Part shown: in pieces, positions 2,686-27,712 of the stretch
Layout: each line of letters begins with the position of its first letter
Position numbering within the stretch: position 1 is the first letter of the stretch
Virus record (IMG/VR): IMGVR_UViG_3300038393_000804
Location: 83,598-147,597 of that record
DNA from: a virus
Lineage: Duplodnaviria > Heunggongvirae > Uroviricota > Caudoviricetes
Direction: 5' to 3' (one strand)
DNA length: 64,000 bases
Translations under genes and position numbers: made by a program
The notes under the pieces: model-generated
The model's database searches: none
What the model was told of the DNA's origin: nothing
Seen by the model: only the letters and a program-made list of their open reading frames with translations

Positions 2686-5670
2686 TTACCAGCGACTTCT
2701 TGACGGCATTCCGCTTCTTCCGCCGCCCGAACCTCTAGCACCCCAGCCCAATGAAGTTCCGCGCTTTCCTACGCTTGTTTTGCGTGGTGGCGGAGGAGTA
2801 GGTTCATCCCATTTCTGGATGTACTCTTGTTTCTCCTGTTGGGTTCTGTCAGTACCTCTATAGATTCGTCCAAGCGGGTCAACGAACTTAACGTCCGCAA
2901 CCGCTACGGTTCTAGCTGGCTGTGAATCCTCAATGGTCTTAGCAATGTCAGGCATTTGGTCAATGAATGCAAAGATACCCAACATCATCGCATCGAGTGC
3001 GTGCTCATCAACATTGGTGTAAGTCGGTTCGCCAGTCTTCGGAGAAATACGTTCTACTGTGTAGTTCGTCATCTGTCTGAAGATAACTTCGTCAACATCC
3101 TTGTTAGGAATCATCAACTGACCACGTTCCAATATGAGTGTCGTTTGGTTAACCATGAACGGCTTTAACGGCTTGTTATCAAACTCACGACTATATGGGT
3201 CACGTACTAGATAAGAGCTGCCAAGTGCAATACCCTTAACGACATCGCCCAATGTCTTACGCAACATTTCGACCTGATATTCACCTGAGCCTCTGTCGGC
3301 ATAAATGGCGAATGGTCTGTAAATGTTATTGAGTTCAATAATCTTCCGAACCGCGTTATCATAGGTAAATTCGCCCTTTGGTATTTCTACACGATTGATG
3401 ACTTGGAATCGTCCATATTTGACTACTCCTGGCCCATCAACCTCTGGGCGTGGTCGCCTTTCTAAGAATGGATTCCATTGAGTAACAACGATTTGAGTCG
3501 CTGCACCCATCTTATCCCAGTCAACGCCAATGGCGATTGGGCTGTCCATCCTAGGCTGGCTGAGTAAAGCGTAACCATTAGACGCTGCCTCGTCAATATA
3601 ATCTTTGTTAAATACCCCCACTAATTCTGTACCGAAGTTCGCCATAACCTCATGGTCGTAAGCCACGTCACTGTAAAGGTTGCGTAATTCCCTTTCCATC
3701 TTCGGTGACCAGCCTGGGTTAACCATCGTTGGGAAGTAGAACTCCGCCCATCCTTCAGCTAGTTTTCGGTCATAAGTGCGGATATCAAATTGATTTGCCA
3801 GCTTACCTTCTACATCAGGGCCACCTTTAAATAGTCTTACATCTTGATTTAGCTTTTCCTGAGTACAGATTTGCCAGAATTTGCCCCGTCGTCCAGTCGG
3901 TGTAGATGCAACCATTACGCCGATTTCATCTGGTCTTTCAAGGGTAATCGCGAAGATAGCTTCAAAGTCTTTGTCGCCAAGGTAGTCAACCTCATCCATG
4001 TATAGCCAAGATGCTTTCTGACCACGGAGAGAACCACCCTCTGTACCACTACGAGTACCAGCTGTGTACAGCTTAATACGAGATTTATTCTTGAAGACAA
4101 TCTCATATGGAGAACGACGGATACTAGCAACCGCTGCTTGAAGCACTGGATTATTGTTAATGAAGTTGTTTAACTGGTCAAATATCTCACGGGCCTGTGT
4201 ATCGTATGGTGTTGCAACCAGACATGTAGCACCTTTCTTCAGCTCTGTACCACCATTACATGTAAAGGCAACCCAAAGCATATGCGCTGTCATTGTCCAT
4301 GTGTTATGCACCAATACATCTTCTACTACTAGGTTGTGAGTCTCTGGAACGAATACGTCATAAGTCTGACGCTTACCCAGTGGCTCAATCGCCGTCACTT
4401 CTTCCCAGATAACATCAGCACGAGCCAAGTCATAAAGGAATGCGGACTCAAGATTGTCAGCATACTTACGAATCTTAGAAATAGTCGGAGCTACGCCAGG
4501 ACGAAGACGTTCGTCTTTGCCGCCAGCTACCTGAGCTTTCGACATTTTCTTCTCTTTACGCTCTTGGTCAATATGCTTCCACACTTCAATAGGAACAGTG
4601 TGTTCTACTACTTCTGTCTTCTCTGCTTGCTCCACAATACCTTTCATTGTGTATTCAGAGCCAAGAATATTAATGTCCATGCCGAAAAGCATTAAGCTTT
4701 CGCGTCTATGAATCATCAATTGATAGATAAAGCTGACGTTGTCCTTGTACTTCTGCCTCTTTGTTTGGAGATTTGTCTGGATACCGAAGCGAAGCAATAG
4801 GTGCTTAACATCCTGTGCAAGCTTCTTAGATACTGTTGCAAATCCAATCTCTGGACGTGTGCCATTATAAACCCATCCACTTACTGCATATAAGCAATTT
4901 AGGAAGATAGATATTTGCTCTTTCTTCAATCCATAAATGAAACTAGGAATCTTTCTTTCTATTACTGCCATAAGGATGTCTTCATCAATAGAAGAAGCAA
5001 TGACACATGTATTCTCCTTATGAGCTTGGCGAATAACCTTTAGTCCATACTTCTCTGCATTATAGATGAAATCTTTCATAACAGTCTGAGACTTAGTACT
5101 GAATGTTAATTGGCTTCCGTTGTAATGTCCGCCTGCAATCAAATAAGCAATAAGCTTTACCTTTTCATAGAGCGTTAATCCGTTCCCGAAATAAGGCATA
5201 GCTGATGGTGTTGCAATGCGCATTCCCTTTTGAAGAGCATCCACTTCCACCCAACCATCTAATGTTAATACAGGATGATTGCCAGTCAGGATAACTTCTG
5301 CCCCGTATTTAGTGCGCACAAGAAATGTTTCCTTTACCCCATTGTCCTCTACAAAGAAAGCTTCACTTGGTTCTAAGTGATACTTCTCGTTTAATGTGAT
5401 GAGTGACGGTTTGCCGCCATCTTTCTGCATTTGGAATAGCTCTTCTACTGACCAGTACTCTCCTGTTACTGGGTCTAATACACGTTGGGTTTCCTCAATA
5501 CATTTTCCGATACGTCGTCCGCATCGAAGAACTTTACGGTGGTGAGGATGTCTTAAGATTTGCTCTTGATACCAACGAGGGGCCTCACCTAAATGGTGAG
5601 CTGCCCACTTCGCTGGGTCACGCATAATCTCAATCATTTCCCTATCGTGATTAGTAAATTGTTTTGCCAT
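2686..5670 (-). CDS. terL: terminase large subunit, interrupted in-frame by an intein
   Basis: Exteins join as CGRRIGK|TWT, giving a Walker A GxxxxGKT. Walker B LYMDEVD follows. A C-terminal nuclease-like region is present. Intein blocks: CIEET (A), GNHPVLT (B), LIAYLIAGGHY and FLNCLYAVSGWV (LAGLIDADG), VLVHN|T (G). Confidence 0.85.
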   Translation of the reverse strand: MAKQFTNHDREMIEIMRDPAKWAAHHLGEAPRWYQEQILRHPHHRKVLRCGRRIGKCIEETQRVLDPVTGEYWSVEELFQMQKDGGKPSLITLNEKYHLEPSEAFFVEDNGVKETFLVRTKYGAEVILTGNHPVLTLDGWVEVDALQKGMRIATPSAMPYFGNGLTLYEKVKLIAYLIAGGHYNGSQLTFSTKSQTVMKDFIYNAEKYGLKVIRQAHKENTCVIASSIDEDILMAVIERKIPSFIYGLKKEQISIFLNCLYAVSGWVYNGTRPEIGFATVSKKLAQDVKHLLLRFGIQTNLQTKRQKYKDNVSFIYQLMIHRRESLMLFGMDINILGSEYTMKGIVEQAEKTEVVEHTVPIEVWKHIDQERKEKKMSKAQVAGGKDERLRPGVAPTISKIRKYADNLESAFLYDLARADVIWEEVTAIEPLGKRQTYDVFVPETHNLVVEDVLVHNTWTMTAHMLWVAFTCNGGTELKKGATCLVATPYDTQAREIFDQLNNFINNNPVLQAAVASIRRSPYEIVFKNKSRIKLYTAGTRSGTEGGSLRGQKASWLYMDEVDYLGDKDFEAIFAITLERPDEIGVMVASTPTGRRGKFWQICTQEKLNQDVRLFKGGPDVEGKLANQFDIRTYDRKLAEGWAEFYFPTMVNPGWSPKMERELRNLYSDVAYDHEVMANFGTELVGVFNKDYIDEAASNGYALLSQPRMDSPIAIGVDWDKMGAATQIVVTQWNPFLERRPRPEVDGPGVVKYGRFQVINRVEIPKGEFTYDNAVRKIIELNNIYRPFAIYADRGSGEYQVEMLRKTLGDVVKGIALGSSYLVRDPYSREFDNKPLKPFMVNQTTLILERGQLMIPNKDVDEVIFRQMTNYTVERISPKTGEPTYTNVDEHALDAMMLGIFAFIDQMPDIAKTIEDSQPARTVAVADVKFVDPLGRIYRGTDRTQQEKQEYIQKWDEPTPPPPRKTSVGKRGTSLGWGARGSGGGRSGMPSRSRW
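4303..5502 (-). mobile_element. Intein of about 400 aa (TerL residues about 57-456) with a LAGLIDADG homing endonuclease domain, inserted in the TerL P-loop
   Basis: Starts with Cys right after GRRIGK and ends in HN followed by Thr. Two LAGLIDADG-like motifs lie between the splicing blocks. Confidence 0.7.
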
Positions 5671-7178: not shown

Positions 7179-8990
7179 CTAAAATGTGTATGTTTGTCCT
7201 TGAATCATCATCTGATTACTTCCAAACTTGGCATTACCCATTTTGTGATGACCAATGCGGTCTTGGAACATTTGAGTAACCATATCACCCATATTAATAG
7301 CTCCATAGGCTTGTTGATGGTACTTTCGTTCCATGTCGCGCTGTTTCTTGTCCTTCATCTGCTTTTCAGCATTCACCATTTTAGATGTCTCTGTTTGATG
7401 GTCTAATCTATCAGATGCATCCATGACAGTAGCAACAGCAAACGCTCCGATTCCGATAGCGCCCAGCATCTTGCCTTTTTCAAACCAGTTGGTGATTTTC
7501 TTCTGGCTGGCAATATTCTTCATACTGGTAATGTGCTTCTCTTTTGCAAGCTGTTCTTCAACCTTGCTTACGGTAACCTGCTCATGAGCTGGCTCATTGT
7601 GAGCGAATTCCTCAGAGACCTCTTTTGCCTTGGTCTTCCTCTGGTCAACAATTGTATCTTCGCCCGTGTCTAAGCCCTTTGGTCCGTGAGTAGGGCCGCC
7701 CATGTCACCATCTAAGACTCCTTGAGAGACAATGTCGTCAAGCCCTTTCGCTATCTTGGATAAGCCGCCCGTCATGAAGTTATGTATATCCTGCATTTCA
7801 TGTGGCTTGAAGAAATGACTTAAACCTTTCTGAATCATTTCATGGTTATCCTCATAGAACTTATTGGCACCGCCGACTCCATTACGGAGCTTACTCATGT
7901 GACTCTTGAAGAAATCCAAGAAGTCTTCCCTTGATGCTCTCACAAGGTCTTTCTTGTTAATGTCAAATTCAACATTTGCTTCCTTATATAAGCTGTTAAG
8001 AGCACCCTTACCTTCTGGACTATCCATGTAGGCACGAACATAATCCCGTGTCTTATTTACATTCTCCATAAAGGCATCAGGATTCTGAGCTATCTTGGTA
8101 ATGCCTTCCCAGTCAGAGTTCATGATGCTTTCAAAAGCACCTTTTACTGCCTGACCATGTTCAGTCTTGAGGATATTGTCCATTGCATCCTTCACATGCT
8201 TAGCGGCAGAAGAATCCATCACTTCTCCGTACATCTCTTTCCAGAGAGCACCTGTTTTCGTGTCCGTAAACTTGTTAAGGCTCTTTTCAGCAATGTCCTT
8301 AACGGTCTTTGTGCCTTTCGCCGCTTTCTCCGCTTCCTTAATGGATTTATTTTGGAAGTGACCATAGAGTTCATGGCCCATCATCGCAAGACCAGCACCA
8401 CCAAGAAGGTTGAAGGCTGTACTTCCAGCGCCATCCTTCTCACCATTCATCATAGTATAGAGAAGACCAGCCGCCATACCAGCACCACCAAAGGCTAAAC
8501 GACCCATATTAACAGGCTTCACGAACTTCCTCATGCTATTGCCGACAAGCTTACCGACAGTGAGTTTCTCTTCTCCCATGACAAAGTTTGGATTAGACTG
8601 ATGAGGAACGATACCGCCAGCTCCTGCTTTAGGTGCCTTCATCTTATTAATGGTCTTATCTATCGCGTTGCCAACAAGATTAGAGCCATACTCTGTTCGG
8701 GCTAGACCTTGAAGAGCCATCTTCGTTAGAGCACCACCAGCGTAAGCCATTCCAGCCATGCCTACAGCGTCTCCAGCAAGTTCCCCTACTGTTTCATGCT
8801 TGTCATTAATCATGTCCAGTGCAACCGCGTGTGTGGCTGCTGTAGCGGCCTCTATGCCTAGCGCAAAGACAGGGTCAGTGGCATATTTGTAGAGACCTTT
8901 ACCAGCTTTCACACCAAGGTTTACAGCTGTCTCATGTTGGCTGAGCTTTGCTGCTTGCTCAATGATGGAATCCATATTGAATGACGGCAT
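7179..8990 (-). CDS. hypothetical protein, 603 aa, Gly/Ala/Met-rich; possible virion protein
   Basis: Long ORF whose stop/start overlaps the upstream gene at 8990. Confidence 0.55.
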   Translation of the reverse strand: MPSFNMDSIIEQAAKLSQHETAVNLGVKAGKGLYKYATDPVFALGIEAATAATHAVALDMINDKHETVGELAGDAVGMAGMAYAGGALTKMALQGLARTEYGSNLVGNAIDKTINKMKAPKAGAGGIVPHQSNPNFVMGEEKLTVGKLVGNSMRKFVKPVNMGRLAFGGAGMAAGLLYTMMNGEKDGAGSTAFNLLGGAGLAMMGHELYGHFQNKSIKEAEKAAKGTKTVKDIAEKSLNKFTDTKTGALWKEMYGEVMDSSAAKHVKDAMDNILKTEHGQAVKGAFESIMNSDWEGITKIAQNPDAFMENVNKTRDYVRAYMDSPEGKGALNSLYKEANVEFDINKKDLVRASREDFLDFFKSHMSKLRNGVGGANKFYEDNHEMIQKGLSHFFKPHEMQDIHNFMTGGLSKIAKGLDDIVSQGVLDGDMGGPTHGPKGLDTGEDTIVDQRKTKAKEVSEEFAHNEPAHEQVTVSKVEEQLAKEKHITSMKNIASQKKITNWFEKGKMLGAIGIGAFAVATVMDASDRLDHQTETSKMVNAEKQMKDKKQRDMERKYHQQAYGAINMGDMVTQMFQDRIGHHKMGNAKFGSNQMMIQGQTYTF

Positions 8991-9682
8991 TATTCCTCAC
9001 CGTCTTCAAGCTCATCATAATCAACATCAATGATTTGACCAGGTTTCATTCCACCTGCAATCTGAGACATCAATTGTGAAGCGTAAGAAGATGGGTCAAG
9101 CGAGATAGTCATCTTATCTCCTGCTTTATCCTTACGAGTAGAGTTCATCAACTCAAGGACTTTAAAGCGCTTCGTCATAATCTTGTCTTTGTATTCAGTA
9201 GCCTTAGAAAGCTGTGGAGCAGTGATAGCCTCGCCGCCTTCAGTTACCGTTACAACGACATCTTCAACGAAGTCACCTTGAACAGCTATCTTATTCTCTG
9301 CACGGAATAACTGAACGTCATAGTCAATTAAGTCTTTTACTAAGCTCATATCAACAACATTGGATTCATCAATACCAAACTCACGACTATACTCTTCGTA
9401 TTTTCTTAGTATCATGGCAATCTCCAATGGACATCTCTCAGCCTTCGGTGCTTTACCCATTTCAACAAGCGGACATACTGCCGCATATGGGCACTCCTCT
9501 GCCTTACATAGCATTGGAATAGATGCGTACAAACCATGTTTCGTATGGGACATTCCCACCGCTAGTTGGATTGCTTCACGTCCTTTATCGGATAACTTCC
9601 ATGACGCGGGCATTTCCACCTCAGTAAGGGATTGTACTTGCTGCATCTTCATTAGTTCTGCTTTACGATTATTGGCAGACAT
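8990..9682 (-). CDS. hypothetical protein, 230 aa, with a Cys cluster (C-x4-C-x..-C) and acidic C-terminus; possibly a DNA-binding or packaging accessory protein
   Basis: ORF at the head of the leftward operon. The MLCKAEECPYAAVCPL...C motif and DYDELEDGEE tail are visible. Confidence 0.5.
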   Translation of the reverse strand: MSANNRKAELMKMQQVQSLTEVEMPASWKLSDKGREAIQLAVGMSHTKHGLYASIPMLCKAEECPYAAVCPLVEMGKAPKAERCPLEIAMILRKYEEYSREFGIDESNVVDMSLVKDLIDYDVQLFRAENKIAVQGDFVEDVVVTVTEGGEAITAPQLSKATEYKDKIMTKRFKVLELMNSTRKDKAGDKMTISLDPSSYASQLMSQIAGGMKPGQIIDVDYDELEDGEE

Positions 9683-9839
9683 AATTTCACTTCCTTTCAG
9701 GCATAATAAAACCAGGACACCTGAACCTACGTCTGAAGCACCCTGGAATGGTATGGTAGGTCAGGTATCGCCTTATGGACACCGTAACCACTTAGTATCA
9801 AGTTTGTAAATAGGTTTGATAAAGAATGGAGATGATATT

Positions 9840-10094
9840 ATGGACATAAGAGGGACTGTGGCATCGTGGCATATTGTCAGTACGATTATAGCCGCCACCA
9901 TCTCTGCTGCCCAAACAGCAAGGATAAGGAAATCTATAAGAGAGCACAATAGGACTTCTGTTAGCGTTATGATTGTTGGAGGTATTATTGCTCTCTTTGG
10001 TACTATTACCATTATGATTAGGGCAAAGAAAAGCGCCCATTTCATAGAGGAGAACAACAAAATGCTAAAGGGAATAAAAAGATGGGGAATTTGA
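9840..10094 (+). CDS. small membrane protein with two predicted TM helices
   Basis: GGAG RBS 8 nt upstream of the ATG at 9840. The hydrophobic segments are read from the sequence; it is followed by the terminator at 10334. An overlapping minus-strand ORF (9773-10183) is the alternative. Confidence 0.35.
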   Translation: MDIRGTVASWHIVSTIIAATISAAQTARIRKSIREHNRTSVSVMIVGGIIALFGTITIMIRAKKSAHFIEENNKMLKGIKRWGI

Positions 10095-10333
10095 AAAAGA
10101 AGCCGTTCCTTGTTGCACCCCCATGGATGATATTTTTCTTCTTTATATCTCATACCGCAATGTGGTTTGTTTCTTTTGGTCAAACGATTTGGATTGTTAG
10201 GGAAGTAAGAAAAGAAATTCGCGTTTTATATAATAAATTAAAATAATAACAAAAAAGGTATCCTTCTCTGACGGCTCCCATTTCACTGAATGTTTAATAG
10301 CCCGTAGAAGATACCTTTTATTGCCGAAGGCTC

Positions 10334-10354
10334 CGCGCCGCTGCGCGTTTTTTA
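10334..10354 (+). terminator. Rho-independent terminator (cgcgc-cgct-gcgcg plus T7)
   Basis: 5-bp all-GC stem followed by TTTTTTT. Confidence 0.45.
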
Positions 10355-10423
10355 TACCTAACTTATGTCCGATATATTCCCTTCTGCTTACATATAAACC
10401 TTTTTACTGAAATATTGCAAGAG

Positions 10424-10458
10424 AAAAATAAAAAAGCCCTATAGCTGACGCTATGGGC
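10424..10458 (-). terminator. Rho-independent terminator on the minus strand (GCCCATAGC-gtca-GCTATAGGGC followed by a T-run on the minus strand)
   Basis: Reverse complement of 10424-10458 gives a 9-10 bp stem followed by TTTTTTATTTTT. It sits downstream of the minus gene 10682-10888. Confidence 0.55.
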
Positions 10459-10681
10459 ATGGTTCGTTTACCTAGCTTAACATGGAGTAATGTAGTGTGT
10501 GTGCTTGTGTTGTATCCTTATTATAGGTTTCGCGTTTTATATTAACAACAAGTATATATTACCTCTTTACTCTTCCCTCTCTATGTGCTTCCCTATGTCT
10601 TTCCCTATAGCTACTCTCTATACTCTTATAGGACATATCAATAGGAGGCTTCGCCTCCATGTGACTCTCCTAATCCATTAA

Positions 10682-10888
10682 TTAATTGCCCCGCCCCTGT
10701 TTCTCTATACGCTCATTACGCTCTATCATGATATAAGTTACAAATATACATACAGAAACAAAACATATAGGACCAACCATAAATAATAAAAGAAAAATAA
10801 GATTACCTACGCCGCCCGCTATTGTCATTTGATGCATACCTGCAATGAATGTACCTATGGAGAAGAATAACCCATTCATTCTATTCAT
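10682..10888 (-). CDS. small membrane protein, 68 aa, two TM helices
   Basis: AGAGGGTGA RBS upstream of the ATG (minus strand); a minus-strand terminator lies downstream. Confidence 0.45.
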   Translation of the reverse strand: MNRMNGLFFSIGTFIAGMHQMTIAGGVGNLIFLLLFMVGPICFVSVCIFVTYIMIERNERIEKQGRGN

Positions 10889-11024
10889 CAGCTCTCACCC
10901 TCTGTTCTATATAAAGAAGACCCACCGCCATTAGCTGATAAAGAATGGAGATTCTTTTATAACTTAACCTTATGTGAAAGGTGATTCGGCGGCCACCGTT
11001 AGGTGGAATGGGTCTGTTTTTAAT

Positions 11025-11062
11025 ATGCATAAATGCATTCATTATTATACATTTCAATGAAT
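11025..11062 (-). promoter_or_regulatory. candidate minus-strand extended -10 promoter (TGTATAAT) embedded in inverted repeats (ATGCAT-AA-ATGCAT and ATTCATT-N14-AATGAAT)
   Basis: Reverse complement of 11043-11050 is TGTATAAT. Palindromes are read directly. Confidence 0.35.
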
Positions 11063-11078
11063 ATTGGGTATATTTTTT

Positions 11079-11093
11079 GTTACCTTAAGGTTA
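11079..11093. promoter_or_regulatory. operator-like 15-mer GTTACCTTAAGGTTA (near-palindrome), with a second partial copy GTTACCTTAAC at 11100
   Basis: The same 15-mer recurs in inverted orientation at 27697-27712. Confidence 0.4.
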
Positions 11094-11130
11094 TTGCAGT
11101 TACCTTAACTTTATGATATACTCTGTTTAA
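11094..11130 (+). promoter_or_regulatory. sigma-A-like promoter TTGCAG-N17-TATACT driving the rightward early block
   Basis: -35 at 11094-11099, 17-nt spacer, -10 at 11117-11122. Confidence 0.5.
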
Positions 11131-11156
11131 TCAATAATTAATCGGGAGAAAAGACA

Positions 11157-11309
11157 ATGGTTGAGTATTATGTAGAGCATGTGAAGTGTTCTTATTGGAT
11201 TATGAGAAGAGACAAACGATTCTGGAAGCTAGGTCCATTTCATGACCAAGGTGATGCAACAATGTTGTTGGAATTATTAACGAGCGGAAAGCTAAGAGAG
11301 GGAGTTTAA
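11157..11309 (+). CDS. small protein (50 aa), tandem paralog of the next gene
   Basis: GGGAG RBS. Shares the pattern YY.E......W......D..F..GPF..QGDA.....L....KL with 11313-11519. Confidence 0.45.
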   Translation: MVEYYVEHVKCSYWIMRRDKRFWKLGPFHDQGDATMLLELLTSGKLREGV

Positions 11310-11312
11310 ATA

Positions 11313-11519
11313 ATGTATTATATTGAAGCATATCTTAACGCATGGTTGATTAAAAAACAGTACGATGATGTATTTACTTTCGGCCCATTTGAAAGCCAAG
11401 GAGACGCCTGGTTTGTGTGTGAAATGCTAAACAATGATAAGTTGAGATTCGAGGTTGGTACTGGTTATGGCAAAGAGGCCCTTAAAGAATCGTATCCAGT
11501 TTACAAGCACGTTGACTAA
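11313..11519 (+). CDS. small protein (68 aa), paralog of 11157-11309
   Basis: GGGAG RBS; sequence similarity to the upstream ORF. Confidence 0.55.
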   Translation: MYYIEAYLNAWLIKKQYDDVFTFGPFESQGDAWFVCEMLNNDKLRFEVGTGYGKEALKESYPVYKHVD

Positions 11520-11622
11520 AGAGAATTTCGCCGCCTTAAAGGAGCTGTCAGACACCACAAAGGTTCCACTATCCAAGCTAATGGATGAAGCAGTCGAGCT
11601 TCTCTTAGCAAAAAGAAATTGA
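11467..11622 (+). CDS. candidate ribbon-helix-helix (Arc/CopG-like) DNA-binding protein, 51 aa, overlapping the 3' end of the previous gene out of frame
   Basis: Pattern of a beta-strand (RIQFTSTL), helix (KENFAALKELSDTT) and helix (PLSKLMDEAVELLLA). The RBS is weak and the overlap unusual. Confidence 0.35.
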   Translation: MAKRPLKNRIQFTSTLTKENFAALKELSDTTKVPLSKLMDEAVELLLAKRN

Positions 11623-11869
11623 TTTGGGAGTAAAGCTAAAAAACGCGGCACACTGGGGTATAAGACAAATAAGTACAGTCTATAATATAGATAGCAAACA
11701 TTCTTACTGGCATTCCTCCAGTAGGTATATGTTTTACCATTAATATGTTTTGGCATAGGTTCTCTCCTATGGAAAGAGGCTTCTCTAGCGGAAAATAGAG
11801 AGGTCTTTTTTTATGGTCTCTTTTAGAACGTATGTTCTCTTATATAGAGAAAAAATGGTGTAATTTATT

Positions 11870-11896
11870 TTGCAGAGTGTTCCTTTGATATAAAAT
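11870..11896 (+). promoter_or_regulatory. candidate promoter (TTGCAG ... TGaTATAAA extended -10) upstream of 12080
   Basis: Hexamers read from the sequence; the spacer is suboptimal. Confidence 0.3.
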
Positions 11897-12079
11897 GATG
11901 GCTTCATTCTTTCGCCCACCCCCTTCCTACCTCTGAGTTCCTCCCAATGTGTGCTCCCTTTATAGGTGAAAAAGAATAAAATTTTTCAGCGACAAGGTAT
12001 ATTTATGAAGTTTGGTCAGTGAAACGTTTCATGCCCACCCCTTACTTCAAATACAACTAACCTATTGGAGGAATGTAAA

Positions 12080-12601
12080 ATGGCAAAAGTATATCGTTAC
12101 ATGAGTGTAAAGGAATTAAAGATGATTATGAATGGAGAAACAGTTGTAGGTCAATTGCAAGAAGATGTACGTTCAAGCACTGATAATAAAGCAAATGTAT
12201 GTTTCTTATCTCAACAAACAAAGTTTAAGGCCATTGGAGAAGACCATGTATATACTCCTGAACAATGCTATGAGTTCTTAGGTGGTATTGTATCAGATGA
12301 AATACTAGTTGAATTCGAAACAAGTGCTGCTTTTGAGTATGGCTATGGTAGATACGCTAGTCCATATGGATTTGGTTCTTCATCTATTTATATTAATGAA
12401 TACTATGTACCTGAGTATAGCTCAAAGGACTTCACTATATTGAGATATGGTACACCAGGCTATGACTTTAAATGGAATAAGTACAGCCGCCTAGCTATCG
12501 CACTACGTCCATTAACAATGAAGGTAGCTAAATGGTTCAAGCATATGAAGAGTAAAAGAGAATATAAGAAGCTTTGTAAAGCTGCTGGTATTAATGACTA
12601 A
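12080..12601 (+). CDS. hypothetical protein, 173 aa
   Basis: TTGGAGGAATG RBS 6 nt upstream of the ATG at 12080. Confidence 0.6.
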   Translation: MAKVYRYMSVKELKMIMNGETVVGQLQEDVRSSTDNKANVCFLSQQTKFKAIGEDHVYTPEQCYEFLGGIVSDEILVEFETSAAFEYGYGRYASPYGFGSSSIYINEYYVPEYSSKDFTILRYGTPGYDFKWNKYSRLAIALRPLTMKVAKWFKHMKSKREYKKLCKAAGIND

Positions 12602-12708
12602 GGGCCTCTATACAGAGGTCTTTATATGGGTACATAGTGTAGCCTCCTCGTGGCGTACCTGGATAACCAACCAATACACTAATACTAATATAAAGGTGGA
12701 ATATAAGA

Positions 12709-12875
12709 TGAACAAAACATTAACAGTAATTGAGAAATGCGAAAGAATGGATGCACATGCACCTAAATGGGAGATTTGGATTGGACAAGAACTAGTACAA
12801 ACTGTTGTATTCAGACAGTACTTAGAGGCTACTGTGGCCTACTACAAGAAGCAGCTAGCAAAGGGTGCTATATAG
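12709..12875 (+). CDS. hypothetical small protein, 55 aa
   Basis: AAGGTGG RBS before the ATG at 12709. Confidence 0.45.
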
Positions 12876-12965
12876 TAGGGCCTCTATATAAGGGGTGCTA
12901 TATAAGGGGCCTTCCTATAAGGGGGGTCTATATAAGGGGGGGTCCTATATAGGGCCTCCTATATT
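12866..12965. repeat. array of about 7 direct repeats of CTATATA(A)GGGG with 14-17 bp periodicity
   Basis: Read directly: gctatatagtaggg / ctctatataagggg / tgctatataagggg / ccttcctataagggggg / tctatataaggggggg / tcctatataggg / cctcctatattt. Confidence 0.6.
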
Positions 12966-13009
12966 TGTGTTTACATAAAAAACCTACAACTAGAAAAGAG
13001 GAAAAGAAA

Positions 13010-13207
13010 ATGAAAAACGAACTTCTAAGAAAACGCATTGAAAAAATGTACCAAGATTACTACTCAGATTCTTCAAGCAAAATCAAGCAAGTTAATTTCG
13101 AAAAAAGAAAAGAATCAAAAATCGAAGGTTTAATTTCTTGGGTAGAATTGCCCGCTGATTCTGAAATGTACAAACAAAATATTTTAATTGGAAAGGAAGT
13201 TTTATAA
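13010..13207 (+). CDS. hypothetical small protein, 65 aa
   Basis: AAGAGGAAAAG RBS before the ATG at 13010. Confidence 0.5.
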   Translation: MKNELLRKRIEKMYQDYYSDSSSKIKQVNFEKRKESKIEGLISWVELPADSEMYKQNILIGKEVL

Positions 13208-13710
13208 TGTTAAAAGTTTTAGATAAACCATCTGCTGAATTAATGCTTTCTACTGAACCTGTTTACACTGTTGATTCTGAAGGCTGGTATGTTTTCGATA
13301 TCTTCCGTGGTTCTGATACTGATAATCTTGAAGGTATTTCTTGGTTTTCTACATCTTATGCTACTGCTCTTGTTTATGCAAATAACACAAATGGTTTTAT
13401 CCAGCACCGCCGTATTCGTATTCCTGCAGAAAATGGTTTCCTAGTAAACCCTAATGATTACTTGCTTGGTGGAAGGTCACGAGCTAGAGGATATAAAGCT
13501 GGTCAAGTAGATACTGACATTGATACTTACTACTATGGCTTAAGTGAAGACATCTATGTGGAAGAAGAGATTAACTGGCACTTTGATATGAGCATTCATG
13601 AAAGTATGCTTAAAGCCATGTCTTATGAGGTTGCTAGATACGAGCGTACTCAGCTCCCGTCTAGTCCTCGCAGCATTACCTTTAATTTCAATTGGGACGG
13701 GGATTCTTAA
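13207..13710 (+). CDS. hypothetical protein, 167 aa
   Basis: ATG overlaps the upstream stop (TAATG). GGAAGGAAG RBS. Confidence 0.6.
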   Translation: MLKVLDKPSAELMLSTEPVYTVDSEGWYVFDIFRGSDTDNLEGISWFSTSYATALVYANNTNGFIQHRRIRIPAENGFLVNPNDYLLGGRSRARGYKAGQVDTDIDTYYYGLSEDIYVEEEINWHFDMSIHESMLKAMSYEVARYERTQLPSSPRSITFNFNWDGDS

Positions 13711-13814
13711 TATAGCCAGGTAGTTAGGCTATATGTGATTCGCCGTTCCCTTTATATCATGGCCCTTGTGGTCACCAATTAATAGTCGTGGGACTTTAAC
13801 CCTGGAGGACAAAC

Positions 13815-14048
13815 ATGTCAGAATTAACTATCATTGCGAACCTATTAAGAAAGGACATTGAAATGTACCACGGTTTATTGGAAGAAGCCATTCGCAACAG
13901 AAACCTTCGTTTACAAGAAGAGCTTACTGCCGAACTTACCGAAATGAAAGACATCTTGAATCACATCGAAAAACCTGAATTTACTCGTAAACTTCGCCTT
14001 GTGCAAAACGAAGCTTGGAGAGAATTTAACAATGGAGGTAGAAACTAA
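13815..14048 (+). CDS. hypothetical protein, 77 aa
   Basis: CTGGAGG RBS. Confidence 0.55.
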   Translation: MSELTIIANLLRKDIEMYHGLLEEAIRNRNLRLQEELTAELTEMKDILNHIEKPEFTRKLRLVQNEAWREFNNGGRN

Positions 14049-14302
14049 TGAACTTAGAATTCGATATTTTAACTGCTGAAATGGTAGATTTACAGATTCA
14101 ATCTTTAAACGCAGCACTTAGGGTTTGGAACACAAACATTGATTCTTATTTAGAAACTTATTCAATGATGATTAAAGCACCTGAAACATTTAATCAAAAT
14201 GATATTGATTGGATTAAAGGCTTACTAGAAACAGCGCAGTACCAGAAGGAAAAGACTTTAGCGGAAATTGAAGTTAAGAAATCCGTTAAATCTTTCTTAT
14301 AA
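14048..14302 (+). CDS. hypothetical protein, 84 aa
   Basis: GGAGGT RBS; start overlaps the upstream stop. Confidence 0.55.
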   Translation: MNLEFDILTAEMVDLQIQSLNAALRVWNTNIDSYLETYSMMIKAPETFNQNDIDWIKGLLETAQYQKEKTLAEIEVKKSVKSFL

Positions 14303-14334
14303 AAAATACTTTTAACTAGCAGGAGGAAACTAGA

Positions 14335-15213
14335 ATGGCAAGAAATTGGGGAAAGAAATACGAAGAAGTTAGCAAAAGAATGAGCAAGAAAGGTAAATTA
14401 GCAGCAGAAGGTCATCATTTAAAGCAGCAAGCTGATAAGAAACTAGCTACAGAATCACTAGAAGATAAAATGAAACGTACTGGTGTTACTAATTTTGAAA
14501 CTGAAGAAGTTGTAGATTACAACGTAGCAAATGCAGATGATGATGTTTGGGGTTTCATGAACAAAAGCTTTTACAATAAATTAATCGCAGATACTAAATT
14601 ACAAGCAGAGAAAGAGGTAGAGGAAATGATGATGGAACAATTTAAAGCAATGTTAAACGAGGTATTAGATGCAAGAGAAAGCAACAAGCGTGCAGAGGAA
14701 ATCAAATTGGCTGAACTACGTATCAGAGAATTAGAGCTTCAAGTTGAATTAGCTAAGCTGCAATCTGCTCCAGTTGAATTTGAATTAACTCCAATGGTTC
14801 CTGTTACTCATGGCAAGTTAGAAGAAGTAATCGAAGAGCATAGTACAGCTGTGAATACTATTTTGGATGCTATTGAGGTTACTGAAAAGCCTGCTAAGAA
14901 ACAACGTAAAGCTACTATTAAGAAGAAAGGTAGCAGCAGGCTTACTCTTAGCACTATTTGTACTCCACTTAATAAGGGTAGAAGTGGGTACTCTGTGGCT
15001 TGGTCTAAGGTGCCTAGTGATGAAGCTGGATTCTTAAATGTCATTATCCCTATTGTTGAATTTGCTATTGATAATGGGATTAATGTTAATGACACTAATG
15101 AGTTCCGTAAGTTCCATCCTGTATGTCAGGGTGCTTACATGCAATACACTAAGAAGTATCCTGGTCAAAAGGGCGTTTGGAAAGCATTTATTGCTGAACA
15201 CTTCAATAAGTAA
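14335..15213 (+). CDS. hypothetical protein, 292 aa, with a central coiled-coil
   Basis: AGGAGGAAAC RBS; terminator immediately downstream. Confidence 0.65.
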   Translation: MARNWGKKYEEVSKRMSKKGKLAAEGHHLKQQADKKLATESLEDKMKRTGVTNFETEEVVDYNVANADDDVWGFMNKSFYNKLIADTKLQAEKEVEEMMMEQFKAMLNEVLDARESNKRAEEIKLAELRIRELELQVELAKLQSAPVEFELTPMVPVTHGKLEEVIEEHSTAVNTILDAIEVTEKPAKKQRKATIKKKGSSRLTLSTICTPLNKGRSGYSVAWSKVPSDEAGFLNVIIPIVEFAIDNGINVNDTNEFRKFHPVCQGAYMQYTKKYPGQKGVWKAFIAEHFNK

Positions 15214-15220
15214 AAACAAT

Positions 15221-15250
15221 GGGAGGTCTTCGGGCCTCTCTTTATTTATA
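15221..15250 (+). terminator. UUCG-tetraloop terminator (GGGAGGTC-TTCG-GGCCTCTC plus TTTATTTAT)
   Basis: 8-bp stem with two G-U wobbles and a T-rich tail. Confidence 0.65.
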
Positions 15251-15283
15251 TAAAAAACTAAACTAGCAAAGGTGGAGTCTATA

Positions 15284-15631
15284 ATGGAAAAGGTTTTAGG
15301 AATGGTTGGTAAAGGTGTAGTTAAGAATGGCGTTATGACTTTTGTGGATGCTTCAGGTAAAGGATTTGCTAAGCACGTTAGTAAGCCTGCTGTTGCTCCT
15401 GTTGTTCGTCGTGAACCTGCTGTTACTTATGGTGTAAGCATGATTAAGGAAGAATCTATTGATGTTCCTAGCTTCATGAAGAACCGTAAGCCTGCGCCTG
15501 TTGAGACTATCATTGAAGAGCCTGCAGATAAAGTTGTTTACCTTAATAATGGATACAAGGGCGAGTCTAAACGTACTCTTCGCAGTGATGCAAAGAAAGT
15601 TTGGAATTGGCTCTGGGACTTGGAGGACTAA
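15284..15631 (+). CDS. hypothetical protein, 115 aa
   Basis: AAAGGTGGAG RBS before the ATG at 15284. Confidence 0.55.
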   Translation: MEKVLGMVGKGVVKNGVMTFVDASGKGFAKHVSKPAVAPVVRREPAVTYGVSMIKEESIDVPSFMKNRKPAPVETIIEEPADKVVYLNNGYKGESKRTLRSDAKKVWNWLWDLED

Positions 15632-15632
15632 T

Positions 15633-15965
15633 ATGAAGCGTGTCGGTAGAGTAACTCTAAAGGATAAACAGATTCAGATTGCACGTATTGGCATCGAGAG
15701 CGTTATTGCACATTGTATTGCACAAAACCTTAAGATTGACCCTGGCTTTCCTGTTCATTGGTATATTGAACAATGTGAAGCCGTGCTTAGTAGAACTAAC
15801 ATCCCAGATTACTTAATTATCGACATCTTAGACGAGGCAGAAGATAAAGGAATGAATGAGGAGCCGCCTGCCAGTGGTGGTGCCTCTCAGCTACACCCTG
15901 AAAACAACAGTCAGTTAATTGAAGCTATTGAAAACTTAAATAAACTATTTTTGGAGGTAATGTAA
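15633..15965 (+). CDS. hypothetical protein, 110 aa
   Basis: GGAGGACTAAT RBS before the ATG at 15633. Confidence 0.5.
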   Translation: MKRVGRVTLKDKQIQIARIGIESVIAHCIAQNLKIDPGFPVHWYIEQCEAVLSRTNIPDYLIIDILDEAEDKGMNEEPPASGGASQLHPENNSQLIEAIENLNKLFLEVM

Positions 15966-17117: not shown

Positions 17118-17123
17118 AACAAT

Positions 17124-17150
17124 GGGAGGGGTCTTCGGGCCTCTCCTTTT
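17124..17150 (+). terminator. UUCG-loop terminator (GGGAGGGGTC-TTCG-GGCCTCTCC plus T4)
   Basis: Read directly. Confidence 0.65.
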
Positions 17151-17185
17151 AAAATAAAATTAAACTATCATTGGAGGAATCTAGA

Positions 17186-18100
17186 ATGTTTGAAGCTACT
17201 ATTATTTTATCTGTTGTTGTTGTTGCTGCGTTGGTTGCTGTTATTGTTGCTATGGTCATGAAAGGTAAGAAGTCTAAGTCTGAAGCTGCTCCTGTGTCTC
17301 TCTATGAAAAGCTTGAAGCTAAGGCAATGAAACTTGCTGATGAAATGTCCGCTGAGGAAAAGAACCGTCTTGTTGGTAAATTTGGCACTGGCTCTTATGA
17401 CTCTGAAACTGCTCCACGTATCACGACAAAGATTGACAGCTTGAATGTACTATACGTTACTGCTTATGGTGTTCGCTATGAATCAGTAAGGGATGCTATT
17501 GAGCGCTCTGCTGAAATGAGTGAAGAAACAGCTTTACGTCTGCTTACTCTTGAGAAGGAGCTATATATTCTTCGTAAAGAGAAGTTTAATGCAAGCCGCC
17601 ACTATAAGACTGTCAAATCTCCTCTATTTGGCACGATTTACTCTTACAATGCTTGTACTATCGGCATTGAAACAAAGACTGGTGCATGGGCAGATAAGGC
17701 TCCTCGTATGGCTATGGTGATTGAGCGTAAAGAGAATGGCTCAGTTAGAGCTATGGACATTTACCTTGCAGATGAAGATATTGCTACAGCTAGTAGTTAC
17801 CTTCACTTTGATTTACGCAAAGAGGAGAATGTTAAACGCTTTGAAGAGCTTATCTGTAAGCAAGAGAAAGAATACGGTGAAGAGATTGAAGTTATTCAAA
17901 CAATCCTAAGCCGTGTAGAGAAATACAATTTTCTTATTGAGGAAAAGCTCCTGAAGGTTGAAGCTGGTAGATTTGTATTCAATATTCCTACTGATAAGCA
18001 GCTTAAGGAATTAAAGAAGTTTGATACTGATGTTCAAGAGCATGAGTCTAACCCTAAAGTAGTAAACATCTTTGAATTCATGCACAGCTCTCAGGAGTAA
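17186..18100 (+). CDS. membrane-anchored hypothetical protein, 304 aa
   Basis: TTGGAGGAATC RBS; N-terminal TM segment IILSVVVVAALVAVIVAMV. Confidence 0.6.
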   Translation: MFEATIILSVVVVAALVAVIVAMVMKGKKSKSEAAPVSLYEKLEAKAMKLADEMSAEEKNRLVGKFGTGSYDSETAPRITTKIDSLNVLYVTAYGVRYESVRDAIERSAEMSEETALRLLTLEKELYILRKEKFNASRHYKTVKSPLFGTIYSYNACTIGIETKTGAWADKAPRMAMVIERKENGSVRAMDIYLADEDIATASSYLHFDLRKEENVKRFEELICKQEKEYGEEIEVIQTILSRVEKYNFLIEEKLLKVEAGRFVFNIPTDKQLKELKKFDTDVQEHESNPKVVNIFEFMHSSQE

Positions 18101-20673: not shown

Positions 20674-21100
20674 GAAATACAATCGCTCTTACCACATTGA
20701 AGTCCATAAAGGCTTGGTAAATATCGAGGGCGTTGTGCAGTTTGAGGGGCAAACGTACAGAAAAGTCGTTGCTACAAAATCTTTCAGTCTTGTCGTTCGC
20801 GAAACAAGCATCAATGCATTGGGTAATGAAGAAATCAAAACTGAATACTTCATGGATTTATGTGCCCGTGCAGGTGAGTTTAAGTACGCTATCACAAAGA
20901 TGGAAAGAGATTGTAAAGACCTAAAGGAAATCCGAGCTTTAGTGTCTAGCCTTAGACCGTTATTCTCAGTTGCCATCAAGAAGGATGCAGCTGCATTAGT
21001 CCGTAGAGCTTTTCGATTATTTGATGACGCACCTATGTATGATATAACAGCACGTACTAAAAAGGTAAAACCTCTTCCCCCAAATTACTATCAGAGATAG
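20635..21100 (+). CDS. hypothetical protein, 155 aa
   Basis: GGAGGT RBS before the ATG at 20635; overlaps the upstream gene 3' end. Confidence 0.5.
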
Positions 21101-21609
21101 GGAAGTTGTCATCTAGTCGCATTTGCCACGGATTAATTAAAGCACAGTAGCCAGTTACCGAAGAACTGGTGAGGGGCATGTTGGTAACAGCATGCATTGG
21201 TTGGAGGGTGCTAGTAAGATTGCCAGGGTGGTATGGGTCCCTGAGCATAGTATGAAAGGAGTTGGTAAAAGTGCAAGGCCCGCCTAAGTTTGTCCTCGAT
21301 GTATACAGACAGAGTTACACTAGGGAGAGGAGAAATGGTTGGCGGGGGTTTACTGGGGAAGCAACACAAGCAATGGAGATGGAAACTATCATGAAACAAC
21401 ACGTACAAACATCTGAAGCAACAGCAATCAACAGCAAGTACCCAGGTCGTCTGTCTTTTACTCACCTACCGAAAGGGGGTGGGAGCCTAACGTAGTTAGA
21501 AACACCCGTCGCGGGGTTTCTTAAATGACGGGGAGAGTTTGTTCTGTTTCCTGCTCGATTCGCAGTTCCCTTTATTATGTTACTAAATTTTAAATTGGAG
21601 GAATTAATC

Positions 21610-25423: not shown

Positions 25424-25434
25424 GCAATACCACA

Positions 25435-25463
25435 GGGGAGTCTTCGGGCTTCCCTTTATTTAT
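25435..25463 (+). terminator. UUCG-loop terminator (GGGGAGTC-TTCG-GGCTTCCC plus TTTATTTATTT)
   Basis: Read directly. Confidence 0.65.
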
Positions 25464-25506
25464 TTAACCAAAAAACTATAACTAATAATAAGGATGGTAA
25501 TTAATC

Positions 25507-26727
25507 ATGACTAAATTTGTAAAATTCGTAGCAACTACTGAAGATGTTAAAGCTGGTGTTGATGTTCTTGTTGAAGACTTCCAAATGACTGTTAACAACT
25601 TTACTGCTGAGGGCAAGAACGGACTTGAAGAAGCTGTTGATATGTATGTGATGGAAGCTATCAACGGCGGAGAGAAGTCCATCGCTGTAGTATCTGATGA
25701 TATCAATGTTGCTAATGCAATCGCTGCTGTACTAAACCAAGCATACACTAAGGAGATGGAATTAATGAAAACTACTAAAACTGCTGAAATCACTGTATCT
25801 GTTGAATCTACACCTGAAGAAAAGAAAGCTGCTACTATCGCTAAATCATCTGCTGCACAAAAGTTCTTGGCTAAACATGCAAACAAAGTTGAAAACACTA
25901 AGGAGGAAGTTGAAATGAAACAAGAAGAAAAGAAGGTTGCTGGTCGTCGTCGTTTAAATACTGGTGCTGCTACACAAGAAGAAAAGAAAGCTGAAGTAAA
26001 AGAAACTAAAACTACAACTAATGAAAAGGTGGAAACTGAAATGAATAAACCAAACCGTAAATCTACTAGCCGTGTACTAAAGAATACTAAGCCTGCTGCT
26101 GCTGAAGGTCGTCGTCGTCTAGGTCGCTCTGAATCAATCAAGAATGAATTCAAGAAGTTTGAAGGCCCTTGGTACTTGAATGCTGAACTATACCCTGTAT
26201 TAAACCGATTAGAAGGAATCCTTGAAACATTGTCTGATGCTGAACTAGGTATTGAGCAAATCGTATTGGTTGACCCAAGTGAAGTGTCTCGTACTCGTAA
26301 CAACCCAGACATCACTGTGGTAATCCAAATCAAAGCTAATGGTAACATCTTGGAGTTCCCAATCAAGAATGCATCTGCTAACTCTAGCTCTGACCTTGCA
26401 TCTACTTCTATTGGATGGGTGGATACAAAGAACGGCCTTCGTCCTGCATTCGGTTTCTGGAGACCTAATGAAATCAATGTGAAAGCTACTTGTACTTGCG
26501 GTAAAGAATTCAAAGGCAACACTGGTAACCTATACTGCACAAGCTGCAAGAAGAAACATGCTGACGCTGAAGTATCTGTATCACACGCTTTGGATATGGA
26601 GTTTGATGGCAACTGGGTATTCCAAACTGTTCCTAACTTGGTTGTACCTCGTGAAACTCTTGCATTAATCATGGCTATTGCTCAGTATGATGCTGGTCTT
26701 GACATGTGGGGAGTTGTAGCAGAGTAA
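25507..26727 (+). CDS. hypothetical protein, 406 aa, with a Lys/Glu-rich basic middle segment (repeated GRRRL)
   Basis: AAGGATGGTAAT RBS; terminator downstream. Confidence 0.65.
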   Translation: MTKFVKFVATTEDVKAGVDVLVEDFQMTVNNFTAEGKNGLEEAVDMYVMEAINGGEKSIAVVSDDINVANAIAAVLNQAYTKEMELMKTTKTAEITVSVESTPEEKKAATIAKSSAAQKFLAKHANKVENTKEEVEMKQEEKKVAGRRRLNTGAATQEEKKAEVKETKTTTNEKVETEMNKPNRKSTSRVLKNTKPAAAEGRRRLGRSESIKNEFKKFEGPWYLNAELYPVLNRLEGILETLSDAELGIEQIVLVDPSEVSRTRNNPDITVVIQIKANGNILEFPIKNASANSSSDLASTSIGWVDTKNGLRPAFGFWRPNEINVKATCTCGKEFKGNTGNLYCTSCKKKHADAEVSVSHALDMEFDGNWVFQTVPNLVVPRETLALIMAIAQYDAGLDMWGVVAE

Positions 26728-26760: not shown

Positions 26761-27402
26761 CTATATAGGGAGATGATTACTTGTATGGGCTGCTAGTTTT
26801 ATACATTATCTATATACGCTGGAGAATATACCCGCCCGATACGCCGAGCGAAGCGAGGCCAAGCTTGACTGGTAGGAGGCGCGTTACAAGTTCAAGTGAA
26901 TGGGGGGAAGCTGTCACGGAGTTTACGCATGGGAAGGGGACCCTTAAGATTCGAACTTGTTGCGCCGACGCACGCGGGGAGCGTTTAGCTATAGAGGCCC
27001 CGTTCTTTATCGGACCCTGCGGTAGCAGGTGCAAGCCCGATGGCGAGCGATGAGCGAGCCATATGCAAATAGGGTGTGGGAGTCCCTATATAGGAGGACC
27101 TGCCTTCGGCTGACTATTCGCCTTCGGCTGGTTGAAGTTGTGGGGGGACCCCTTTAGAGGAGGCTTTCGCTGGTGGGCGTATTACGCCTGATTAATTGAA
27201 TTGAATTAATAGGTAGGATGTATATAGAGAGTATCATGTACTATATAGGTATATGGTATATATAGCAGGAACTATATAGGGAGAGGAAGACTATATAGAA
27301 TAGAGTGTTATACGTGGCGGCATTGTTTTTCATATGTGGTGTCATAATGCTATATGATTTAGCTAATAGGCATAAGTAGTACTATATAGGAGGAATGGTA
27401 GA

Positions 27403-27651
27403 ATGGAAGAGTTTATTGATAAGTGTATGTATGTATTAAAGGAAGGGATGACACTGGGCACCGACGGGCTATTCATCTCTTATATAGGCAATGATATCTA
27501 TATAGTACAGGACCCTGTATTACCAGAGTGTGATACCGAAGAAGGTCCAGTGGAGATACGCCGCCGCTTGGAGGAATACTATATAAGCCATCCTATGGAG
27601 ATGGAGATGGACAGAGACTATATAGAGGAACGCATAGGGAGCGCCGTGTAG
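27403..27651 (+). CDS. hypothetical acidic protein, 82 aa
   Basis: TAGGAGGAATGG RBS; contains CTATATAG motifs within the coding sequence. Confidence 0.5.
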   Translation: MEEFIDKCMYVLKEGMTLGTDGLFISYIGNDIYIVQDPVLPECDTEEGPVEIRRRLEEYYISHPMEMEMDRDYIEERIGSAV

Positions 27652-27696
27652 GTGACTCCCTTTCTCTCTGGATGTCATAAAGTCATGGTAACTTAC

Positions 27697-27712
27697 TTAA
27701 CCTTAAGGTAAC
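27697..27712. promoter_or_regulatory. operator-like motif TTAACCTTAAGGTAAC (reverse complement GTTACCTTAAGGTTAA), the inverted copy of the 11079 motif
   Basis: 15/16-nt identity with 11079-11093 in the opposite orientation. Confidence 0.4.

Follow-up and report, generated by a model that had tools for sequence, protein, structure and literature searches.

Introduction

Direct repeats with a conserved core are found in the non-coding DNA of replication origins, where they are known as iterons, as in lambda ori, P1 oriR and theta plasmids. Ribbon-helix-helix (RHH) proteins such as MetJ (metboxes), omega (heptads) and ParR (parC) also bind arrays of short repeats. In enterobacteria, the repetitive extragenic palindromic elements and bacterial interspersed mosaic elements (REP/BIME) are clustered imperfect hairpin repeats in 3' untranslated regions, which can stabilise the upstream mRNA, and REPs form dispersed genome-wide families of alternating orientation. 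In this study, we analysed an array of CTATATA-containing repeats in a stretch of 64,000 nucleotides (nt) from a virus of the Caudoviricetes (IMG/VR record IMGVR_UViG_3300038393_000804, positions 83,598 to 147,597), hereafter called the window, within which all coordinates are given. The array resembles iterons in being a set of several direct repeats with a conserved core in a non-coding stretch, and it resembles REP/BIME in being a cluster of imperfect hairpin repeats in a 3' untranslated region. Unlike the REP/BIME families, its composite unit was found once in the 64 kb.

Conserved intergenic stem-loop modules have also been described in T4-type phages, where these short elements, named PeSLs (promoter-early stem-loops), often carry polyG/polyC and flank ORFans in variable early regions (PMC2839356, PMC4122927). 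According to the same sources, recombination between PeSLs is thought to add or remove genes (PMC2839356, PMC4122927). Here, we report the anatomy of the array, its predicted folding and its relatives, and we give about an even chance to the reading that it is an intrinsic-terminator module repeated in tandem within a variable region of early genes.

Results

The array is made of seven units of the form A-G(3-7)-N(2-4)-CTATATA(A/G), all read directly on the + strand (Table 1). The original prediction, made from the letters of the window, had described about seven CTATATA(A)GGGG repeats, and this array is real. The exact 12-mer CTATATAAGGGG occurs three times in it (12884, 12898 and 12928), and with up to two mismatches it has 12 matches in the window against 3.6 +/- 2.1 in shuffled sequences, with none of the 100 shuffles reaching 12. 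Units 4 and 7 are degenerate (CCTATAA and CCTATAT). The TATA cores start at 12868, 12884, 12898, 12915, 12928, 12945 and 12959, with core-to-core distances of 16, 14, 17, 13, 17 and 14 nt. The units therefore do repeat as proposed, but at an irregular 13-17 nt rather than 14-17 bp, and the best-fitting period is 30 nt, not 15. Tandem Repeats Finder, which ranked the array first among the non-coding tandem repeats of the window, gave the period of 30 a score of 87-90 (83-84% matches) and the period of 14-15 a score of 44-50 (67-71% matches). The longest exact repeat inside the array, by direct reading, is 12-13 nt, and no other copy of the composite GGG-N2-5-TATAWA was found when both strands of the 64 kb were searched.

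The G-runs of the array all lie on the sense strand, with lengths of 3, 3, 4, 4, 6, 7 and 3 at 12863, 12878, 12892, 12906, 12921, 12936 and 12952. The predicted rise in G-run length was thus observed from 3 to 7, and the last unit drops back to 3. The array begins at the stop codon of a co-oriented open reading frame (ORF), which the original prediction had placed upstream of the repeats at 12709-12875. This gene starts at 12708, and its TAG stop (12873-12875) is part of the first unit; the array thus overlaps the gene end. The ORF at 12767-12952, which had been taken for a translation artefact, overlaps the 55-amino-acid (aa) ORF out of frame and reads through the repeats, and its dismissal is reasonable.

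The segments between successive TATATA cores alternate between two types, one like GGGGGGTCC (also GGGGTGC) and the other like GGGCCTCC (also GGGCCTTCC). Both types have their G's at the 5' end and their pyrimidines at the 3' end, and they therefore look like direct repeats in DNA; the period of 30 beats that of 15 because the two types alternate. In the sense-strand RNA, the two types are complementary by G-C and G.U pairing and are predicted to form the arms of three hairpins, H1, H2 and H3. The array was folded in two halves, and each strand was set against shuffled controls. The H1+H2 region folded at -26.6 kcal/mol (z -2.85) on the + strand and at -12.7 kcal/mol (z -0.87) on the - strand, and the H3 region at -19.1 kcal/mol (z -2.43) and -11.6 kcal/mol (z -0.74), respectively. 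The antisense folds were thus weaker than the sense folds by 13.9 kcal/mol in the H1/H2 half and 7.5 kcal/mol in the H3 half. Since the fold is built with G.U pairs and belongs to one strand only, these results point to a signal in RNA and not to a double-stranded DNA site.

The last hairpin, H3, was a hit of the terminator scan; its stem has 10 pairs, six being G-C, and ATATTTGTGT follows. Its tail has 5 U in the first 8 positions, which satisfies the rule of the scan, but the tract is interrupted. The -17.0 kcal/mol of H3 is at the level of the strongest terminators of this phage, which range from -11 to -17.5 kcal/mol. The clear terminators of the phage pair the arms GGGAGGTC ... GGCCTCTC around a loop that is usually UUCG, and their tails include TTTATTTAT and TTTTTTGTGT. 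H3 is predicted to be a working intrinsic terminator.

The end of the array, H3 with its tail, aligns with intergenic cassettes at 15219, 17121 and 25432. The recurrent cassette consists of a hairpin, a T-rich tail (TTTAT...), the A-rich sequence AAAAAAC-TA-AACTAG and the next ribosome-binding site (RBS), which in this phage reads AAAGGTGG or AGGAGG. The copies, at 15219-15289, 17121-17190, 25432-25509 and 12935-13012, follow the scheme of a GGGAGGTC-TTCG-GGCCTCTC hairpin, TTTATTTA, the A-rich box and the RBS. The A-rich box directly before the RBS is a possible phage promoter or signal of the 5' untranslated region. No sigma-A-like promoter was found in or after the array, the scan giving no promoter-like site on the + strand of 12748-13583.

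A terminator related to the array, T1, lies 276 nt upstream of it. T1, with the sequence AGGGCCTCTATACAGAGGTCTTTATAT, and the array unit 12877-12903 share 74% identity over 27 nt, and the exact 12-mer AGGGCCTCTATA occurs in the window only at 12601, in T1, and at 12877, in the array. The repeat search also grouped T1 with array units (families D1 and D12). Because of the shared 12-mer and this identity, the 55-aa ORFan between T1 and the array is bracketed by related terminator modules. The ORFan had no Pfam or PHROG match.

The relatives of the phage were found only via the protein database and contig look-ups. The 167-aa protein encoded downstream of the array has two relatives at ~60% identity, and both contigs, lineage A (L057) and lineage B (L065), keep the downstream gene order. 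In lineage A, one plain hairpin, GAGACTTGCCATTATTGGTGAGTCTC followed by TTTAT, at -17.1 kcal/mol, stands ahead of the gene homologous to the 65-aa gene. In lineage B, the position of the array is taken by GGTCCC-TTTA-TGGGGCC followed by TTTTGTTTTACATAAAAAG, at -14.5 kcal/mol, and this tail matches TTTGTGTTTACATAAAAAA of the window. No CTATATA array was found in either lineage within the ~10 kb read on each side of the position. The conservation in related phages that the original prediction had set as a check was therefore not found, each lineage having a single plain hairpin in place of the array. The 55-aa ORFan was absent from lineages A and B, which have unrelated genes instead, and each of the three lineages has different genes upstream of the hairpin. 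These results cover lineages A and B; the sequence of two closer contigs of ~77% nucleotide identity, L076 and L077, begins past the array position, at ~2.7 kb and ~11.5 kb downstream, respectively.

Other searches gave no nearer relatives. Megablast of 12000-14000 against GenBank phages gave no match, and the protein matches were only distant, to Bacillus jumbo phages. The search with the 65-aa protein returned only itself. Neither the flanking proteins nor their alignment had relatives in IMG/VR, in metagenome contigs of the Joint Genome Institute (JGI) or in GTDB genomes, and the exact flank pattern had 0 matches in metagenome contigs. No part of the window matched Rfam at the gathering threshold, with only chance-level matches around the array and a second CTATATA cluster at 26.7-28.1 kb, and the window contained no tRNA or tmRNA. 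A literature search for the motif string returned nothing relevant.

The longest G-run, which forms the 5' arm of H3, differs in length between contigs. It is G8 in L002 and G7 in the window and in L001, L003 and L073-L075, and apart from this run the contigs of other samples are identical across the array. In JGI sample 3300037467, contig Ga0395902_0000076 (134,964 bp) carries G7 and ends ~120 nt past the run, and contig Ga0395902_0000084 (128,508 bp) carries G8 and starts 110 nt before it. The two contigs overlap by ~235 nt (window 12826-13060), differ only in G7 versus G8 and are joinable, which bears out the view of the array as a slippage-prone G-tract. Three further contigs begin inside the array or directly after the G7 run. 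Repeat collapse through repeated k-mers was ruled out as the cause of these breaks by the short length of the longest exact internal repeat, so that the breaks come from run-length heterogeneity, either true heteroplasmy or homopolymer error. A genome terminus at the array was ruled out as well, since the overlapping contigs read through it. The stretch with the G7 run has the G4Hunter maximum of the window (2.04). Two of the three extended G-quadruplex (G4) motifs of the window (at least 4 runs of at least 3 G, loops of up to 12 nt) lie in the array, at 12863-12909 and 12921-12954.

Table 1. Coordinates of the array, its hairpins, the neighbouring elements and two genes of the wider window
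Feature	Position	Strand	Remarks
Repeat array	12861-12965	+	Seven units, equal to about three 30-nt hairpin modules
Hairpin H1	12880-12896	+	GCCUCU-AUAUA-AGGGGU; -10.0 kcal/mol; no U-tract after it
Hairpin H2	12907-12929	+	GGGCCUUCCU-AUA-AGGGGGGUCU; G.U-rich; -13.6 kcal/mol; no U-tract after it
Hairpin H3 with U-rich tail AUAUUUGUGUUU	12937-12972	+	Stem GGGGGGUCCU-AUAU-AGGGCCUCCU at 12937-12960; -17.0 kcal/mol
Length-polymorphic G7 run (G7/G8)	12936-12942	+	Forms the 5' arm of H3
Cassette tail ACATAAAAAACCTACAACTAGAAAAGAGG...	12973-13009	+	Runs into the RBS of the next gene; same layout as after the other terminators of the phage and the hairpins of the relatives
Terminator T1	12601-12627	+	After gene 12065-12601; AGGGCCTCTATACAGAGGTC + TTTATAT; -12.4 to -15.5 kcal/mol
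55-aa ORFan	12708-12875	+	RBS AAAGGTGG; called by JGI; last codons and TAG stop made by the first repeat unit
65-aa gene	13010-13207	+	Downstream of the array; homologue in lineage A
Large terminase subunit gene	2686-5670	-	Interrupted by an intein with a LAGLIDADG endonuclease domain
Sigma-70-family protein, 476 aa	44144-45574	+	Regions 2 and 4; additional C-terminal helix-turn-helix domains

The motif CTATATAG has 12 exact copies in the window against 0.68 expected, and all of them lie in the array or at 26761-28066. The latter region, a 1.3-kb ORF-poor stretch, holds 10 of them, and L076 (11211-12114) and L077 (2298-3777) keep 10 and 11 exact copies at the equivalent place. When 31 motif sites from the three lineages were pooled, the cluster motif was directional, (T)A-CTATATAG-R(R). 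Position -1 was A in 21 of the 31 sites and G in none, and position -2 was T in 17. G was strongly preferred at position 8, and the 3' flank was purine-rich and nearly free of C. Several copies stand 15-25 nt ahead of the start codons of small ORFs, and the motif resembles a compact promoter or a regulator site specific to the phage. In the five full units of the array, position -1 is G, T, G, T and C, and position 8 is A in three of the five and G only in units 1 and 6. Because of these deviations, the array units are not canonical copies of the cluster motif. The CTATATA core that the original prediction saw shared between the two places is therefore a literal match that does not carry over to the extended motif of the cluster. 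TATAT-rich tails are common after the terminators of this phage, and the link between array and cluster is suggestive at most. The stretches 21095-21580 and 26830-27180 of the window are GC-rich and ORF-poor and look like structured RNAs; neither had an Rfam match, 26830-27180 not even at a permissive threshold.

The window belongs to a very large phage with a Gram-positive-type host, and among public contigs that encode the flanking proteins, the longest measures 526,029 bp. Gene orientation in the window is leftward up to ~10.2 kb and rightward from ~11.1 kb, which places the array 1.8 kb into the rightward block, surrounded by small genes without known homologues. The window also encodes a sigma factor, a tRNA nucleotidyltransferase and NAD-salvage genes. 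A ~230-nt non-coding leader precedes the first rightward gene, at 11830-12065. It is conserved at the nucleotide level in L065 (1190-1435) and L057 (790-965), although the proteins of these lineages are only ~60% identical. The leader contains a sigma-A-like promoter at 11869-11896, two CCCACCCC boxes and, directly behind an RHH_3 gene, the near-palindrome TCTCTTATATAGAGA at 11836-11850. The consensus RNA fold of 11900-12062 is weak. Another tandem repeat, at 57683-58193 (+), has a 171-nt unit in three copies (76% matches) inside the 359-aa ORF 57318-58397.

Arrays of the TATA(TA)AGGGG type were also seen in unrelated IMG/VR viral contigs, at 5100-5540 in L017, 5860-5990 in L010 and 580-620 in L032, and similar arrays occur in L030 and L031. 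They are followed by HNH/terS/terL in L010, by terS/terL in L032 and by terL in L017, which has more than 20 units. The array of L017, much longer and built of GGGGCTTATATAA units, starts right after a terminator, AGCCTCCTT-ATTA-AAGGGGGCT followed by T7, whose loop and 3' arm resemble the array unit. Judged from the sequence, this suggests that the L017 array was seeded from a terminator in the same manner as the array of the window.

Discussion

In this study, we found that the array is predicted to fold, on one strand only, into hairpins whose last member stands where two related lineages have a single terminator. In the reading that we favour, a small early ORFan would carry, in its 3' untranslated region, about three tandem copies of a ~30-nt module, namely the ordinary intergenic terminator hairpin of the phage. 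The layout of each module would be arm, TATATA, arm, TATATA, with arms of a GGGGGGUCC-like and a GGGCCUCC-like type. Transcription coming from the left would produce three consecutive hairpins, and only the last, with its U-rich tract, would release the polymerase. The inner hairpins would contribute at most a pause or a structure protecting the 3' end, or they may have no effect. The most probable source of the copies is slippage, or unequal recombination, between terminator modules of kindred sequence, those of T1 and the array, and the long G-runs would keep slipping, as the G7/G8 difference illustrates. We infer termination at H3, little independent role for the inner copies and this route of duplication from the folding, the terminators of the relatives and the kinship with T1.

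Several observations weigh against the terminator reading. The TATATA and the first G's are the most conserved parts of the array and the arms vary, which a protein-binding core with variable spacers would predict likewise, and TATATA is retained in both the loops and the spacers. The interruption of the U-tract of H3 makes its efficiency uncertain. The clustering of CTATATAG at one other site of the window, conserved in relatives, hints at a factor that reads this motif. The comparison at the array position is limited to relatives of ~60% protein identity. The main residual uncertainty is that a protein may also read the conserved CTATATA-G cores.

A protein of this kind is the basis of the main rival, which we regard as unlikely, namely that the array is a double-stranded DNA binding site for a phage regulator (an operator, a silencer or a centromere-like site) with several dimers on the CTATATA(A/G) cores. 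The candidate regulators are the RHH protein encoded at 11455-11622, 1.3 kb upstream, and a factor reading the CTATATAG cluster. The conserved core, the variable spacers and the three exact 12-mers are what such an array would have, and short, partly palindromic 8-mers in tandem near an RHH_3 gene recall the arrays bound by MetJ, omega and ParR. The excess of CTATATAG, the second cluster kept in two relatives, and the TATATAG-centred near-palindrome, which adjoins the early promoter and is conserved in lineage B, also agree with a regulator. However, the palindrome is present in only two of the seven units, the spacing is irregular, and the array is missing from lineage B despite the presence there of the RHH gene and the promoter-proximal palindrome. 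The units misfit the motif of the second cluster, where position -1 is never G and G is preferred at position 8; the directionality of that motif itself argues against a symmetric dimer site. A double-stranded DNA site would also leave the sense-only G.U pairing unexplained, and a regulator-binding array is less well supported than the terminator reading at the RNA level. A broader form of the idea, in which a rapidly evolving control element presents CTATATA-G(n) sites, as double-stranded DNA or RNA, to the same phage factor that reads the CTATATAG cluster, with G6-G8 slippage (possibly through a G-quadruplex or an R-loop) tuning the output, appears to us distinctly improbable. The units could instead be tandem compact promoters for a phage-specific transcription machinery, each with a CTATATA(A) core and a start in the next G-run, driving the downstream early genes. 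T7-like starts have the form TATA/GGG. The units resemble the directional (T)A-CTATATAG-GGAGA sites of the cluster, which are purine-rich on the 3' side and sometimes stand 15-25 nt before start codons, and the downstream gene has no sigma-A-type promoter that we could find. This reading is nevertheless very unlikely. No phage RNA polymerase was found in the window, whose large ORFs gave no Pfam or PHROG polymerase match, and the 837-aa protein lacks a DxDxD motif and has no relative in the PDB. The units also lack the A at -1 and mostly the G at position 8 of the cluster motif, transcripts from units 1-5 would meet H3 directly, and the relatives have no such motif ahead of the homologous downstream gene.

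The G-runs themselves could be the functional part, as a hypermutable element prone to G-quadruplexes or R-loops, in which the runs, on the non-template strand or in the RNA, would form G4 structures or stable RNA:DNA hybrids that pause or terminate transcription or prime replication, with slippage adjusting their effect. The window-wide G4Hunter maximum, the two extended G4 motifs, the sense-strand placement of all G-runs and the G7/G8 heterogeneity within one sample are in line with this. The loops are long, at 9-11 nt, the same G's are predicted to lie in stable hairpins, and the element is unconserved in the relatives, and we give this reading only a small chance; it is compatible with the terminator reading. 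The lack of conservation bears equally on the iterons of a replication origin, which the original prediction had considered and which now seem highly improbable. Direct repeats form the array, and a cumulative GC-skew minimum and the point of transcription divergence lie within ~2 kb. However, the array is absent from this position in lineages A and B, and the minimum, resolved at fine scale, is ~1.9 kb away and coincides with the switch in gene strand. Among the ten neighbouring ORFs (11157-15213), the sole match in Pfam or PHROGs is RHH_3/Arc-like, with none to a Rep protein, an initiator or a helicase loader. No DnaA-box-like site was found in 7854-15817, the window-wide count equals chance, and there is no distinct AT-rich unwinding stretch, the lowest-GC stretch nearby being coding sequence. 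Thus the array differs from described iterons in the missing initiator gene, unwinding element and DnaA boxes, in a unit spacing that is irregular and off helical phase, and in its strand-specific RNA fold. The slimmest chance falls to a packaging recognition site, that is, pac/cos-type terminase-binding repeats. The arrays directly upstream of terminase genes in the unrelated contigs L010, L017 and L032, the large terminase gene of this phage ~7 kb away and the several contigs that end at the array speak for such a site. The contig ends are explained by the G7/G8 difference, overlapping contigs read through the array with no fixed genome end, and the array lies inside the + strand early-gene block, away from the packaging operon, and is unconserved in the relatives.

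The terminator reading is also the one with the closest described counterparts. Like intrinsic terminators, including tandem ones, the array presents G/C-rich sense stem-loops right after a stop codon, the last with a U-rich tract, and H3 matches the other terminators of the phage in energy and arms and the single terminator of the relatives in position. In contrast to ordinary terminators, it has three hairpins derived from one module, with TATATA loops and not the usual UUCG, inner hairpins without U-tracts, an interrupted final U-tract and long G arms that are length-polymorphic. In the manner of T4-type PeSLs, an ORFan that the relatives lack stands between T1 and the array, and by analogy the region may be variable because terminator-bounded gene cassettes are exchanged. 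Unlike what is described for PeSLs, the array module has no sigma-70-type promoter in the scanned + strand interval, and the modules are piled up in tandem, a word that occurs 0 times in the accessible text of PMC2839356. This unrelated phage also has a Gram-positive-like host. We therefore regard the array as a variant of a known element rather than a new kind of element, a minor curiosity that opens no long-standing question.

The G7/G8 run split an assembly of more than 250 kb into two contigs, and such sites are worth checking when genomes of giant phages are closed. If the terminator reading is true, arms paired through G.U would mimic an iteron array in DNA though acting in RNA, which advises caution with origins called from direct repeats. 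The array would then be a small example of how the regulatory punctuation of a phage evolves, with a terminator module copied in tandem and bracketing newly acquired ORFans.

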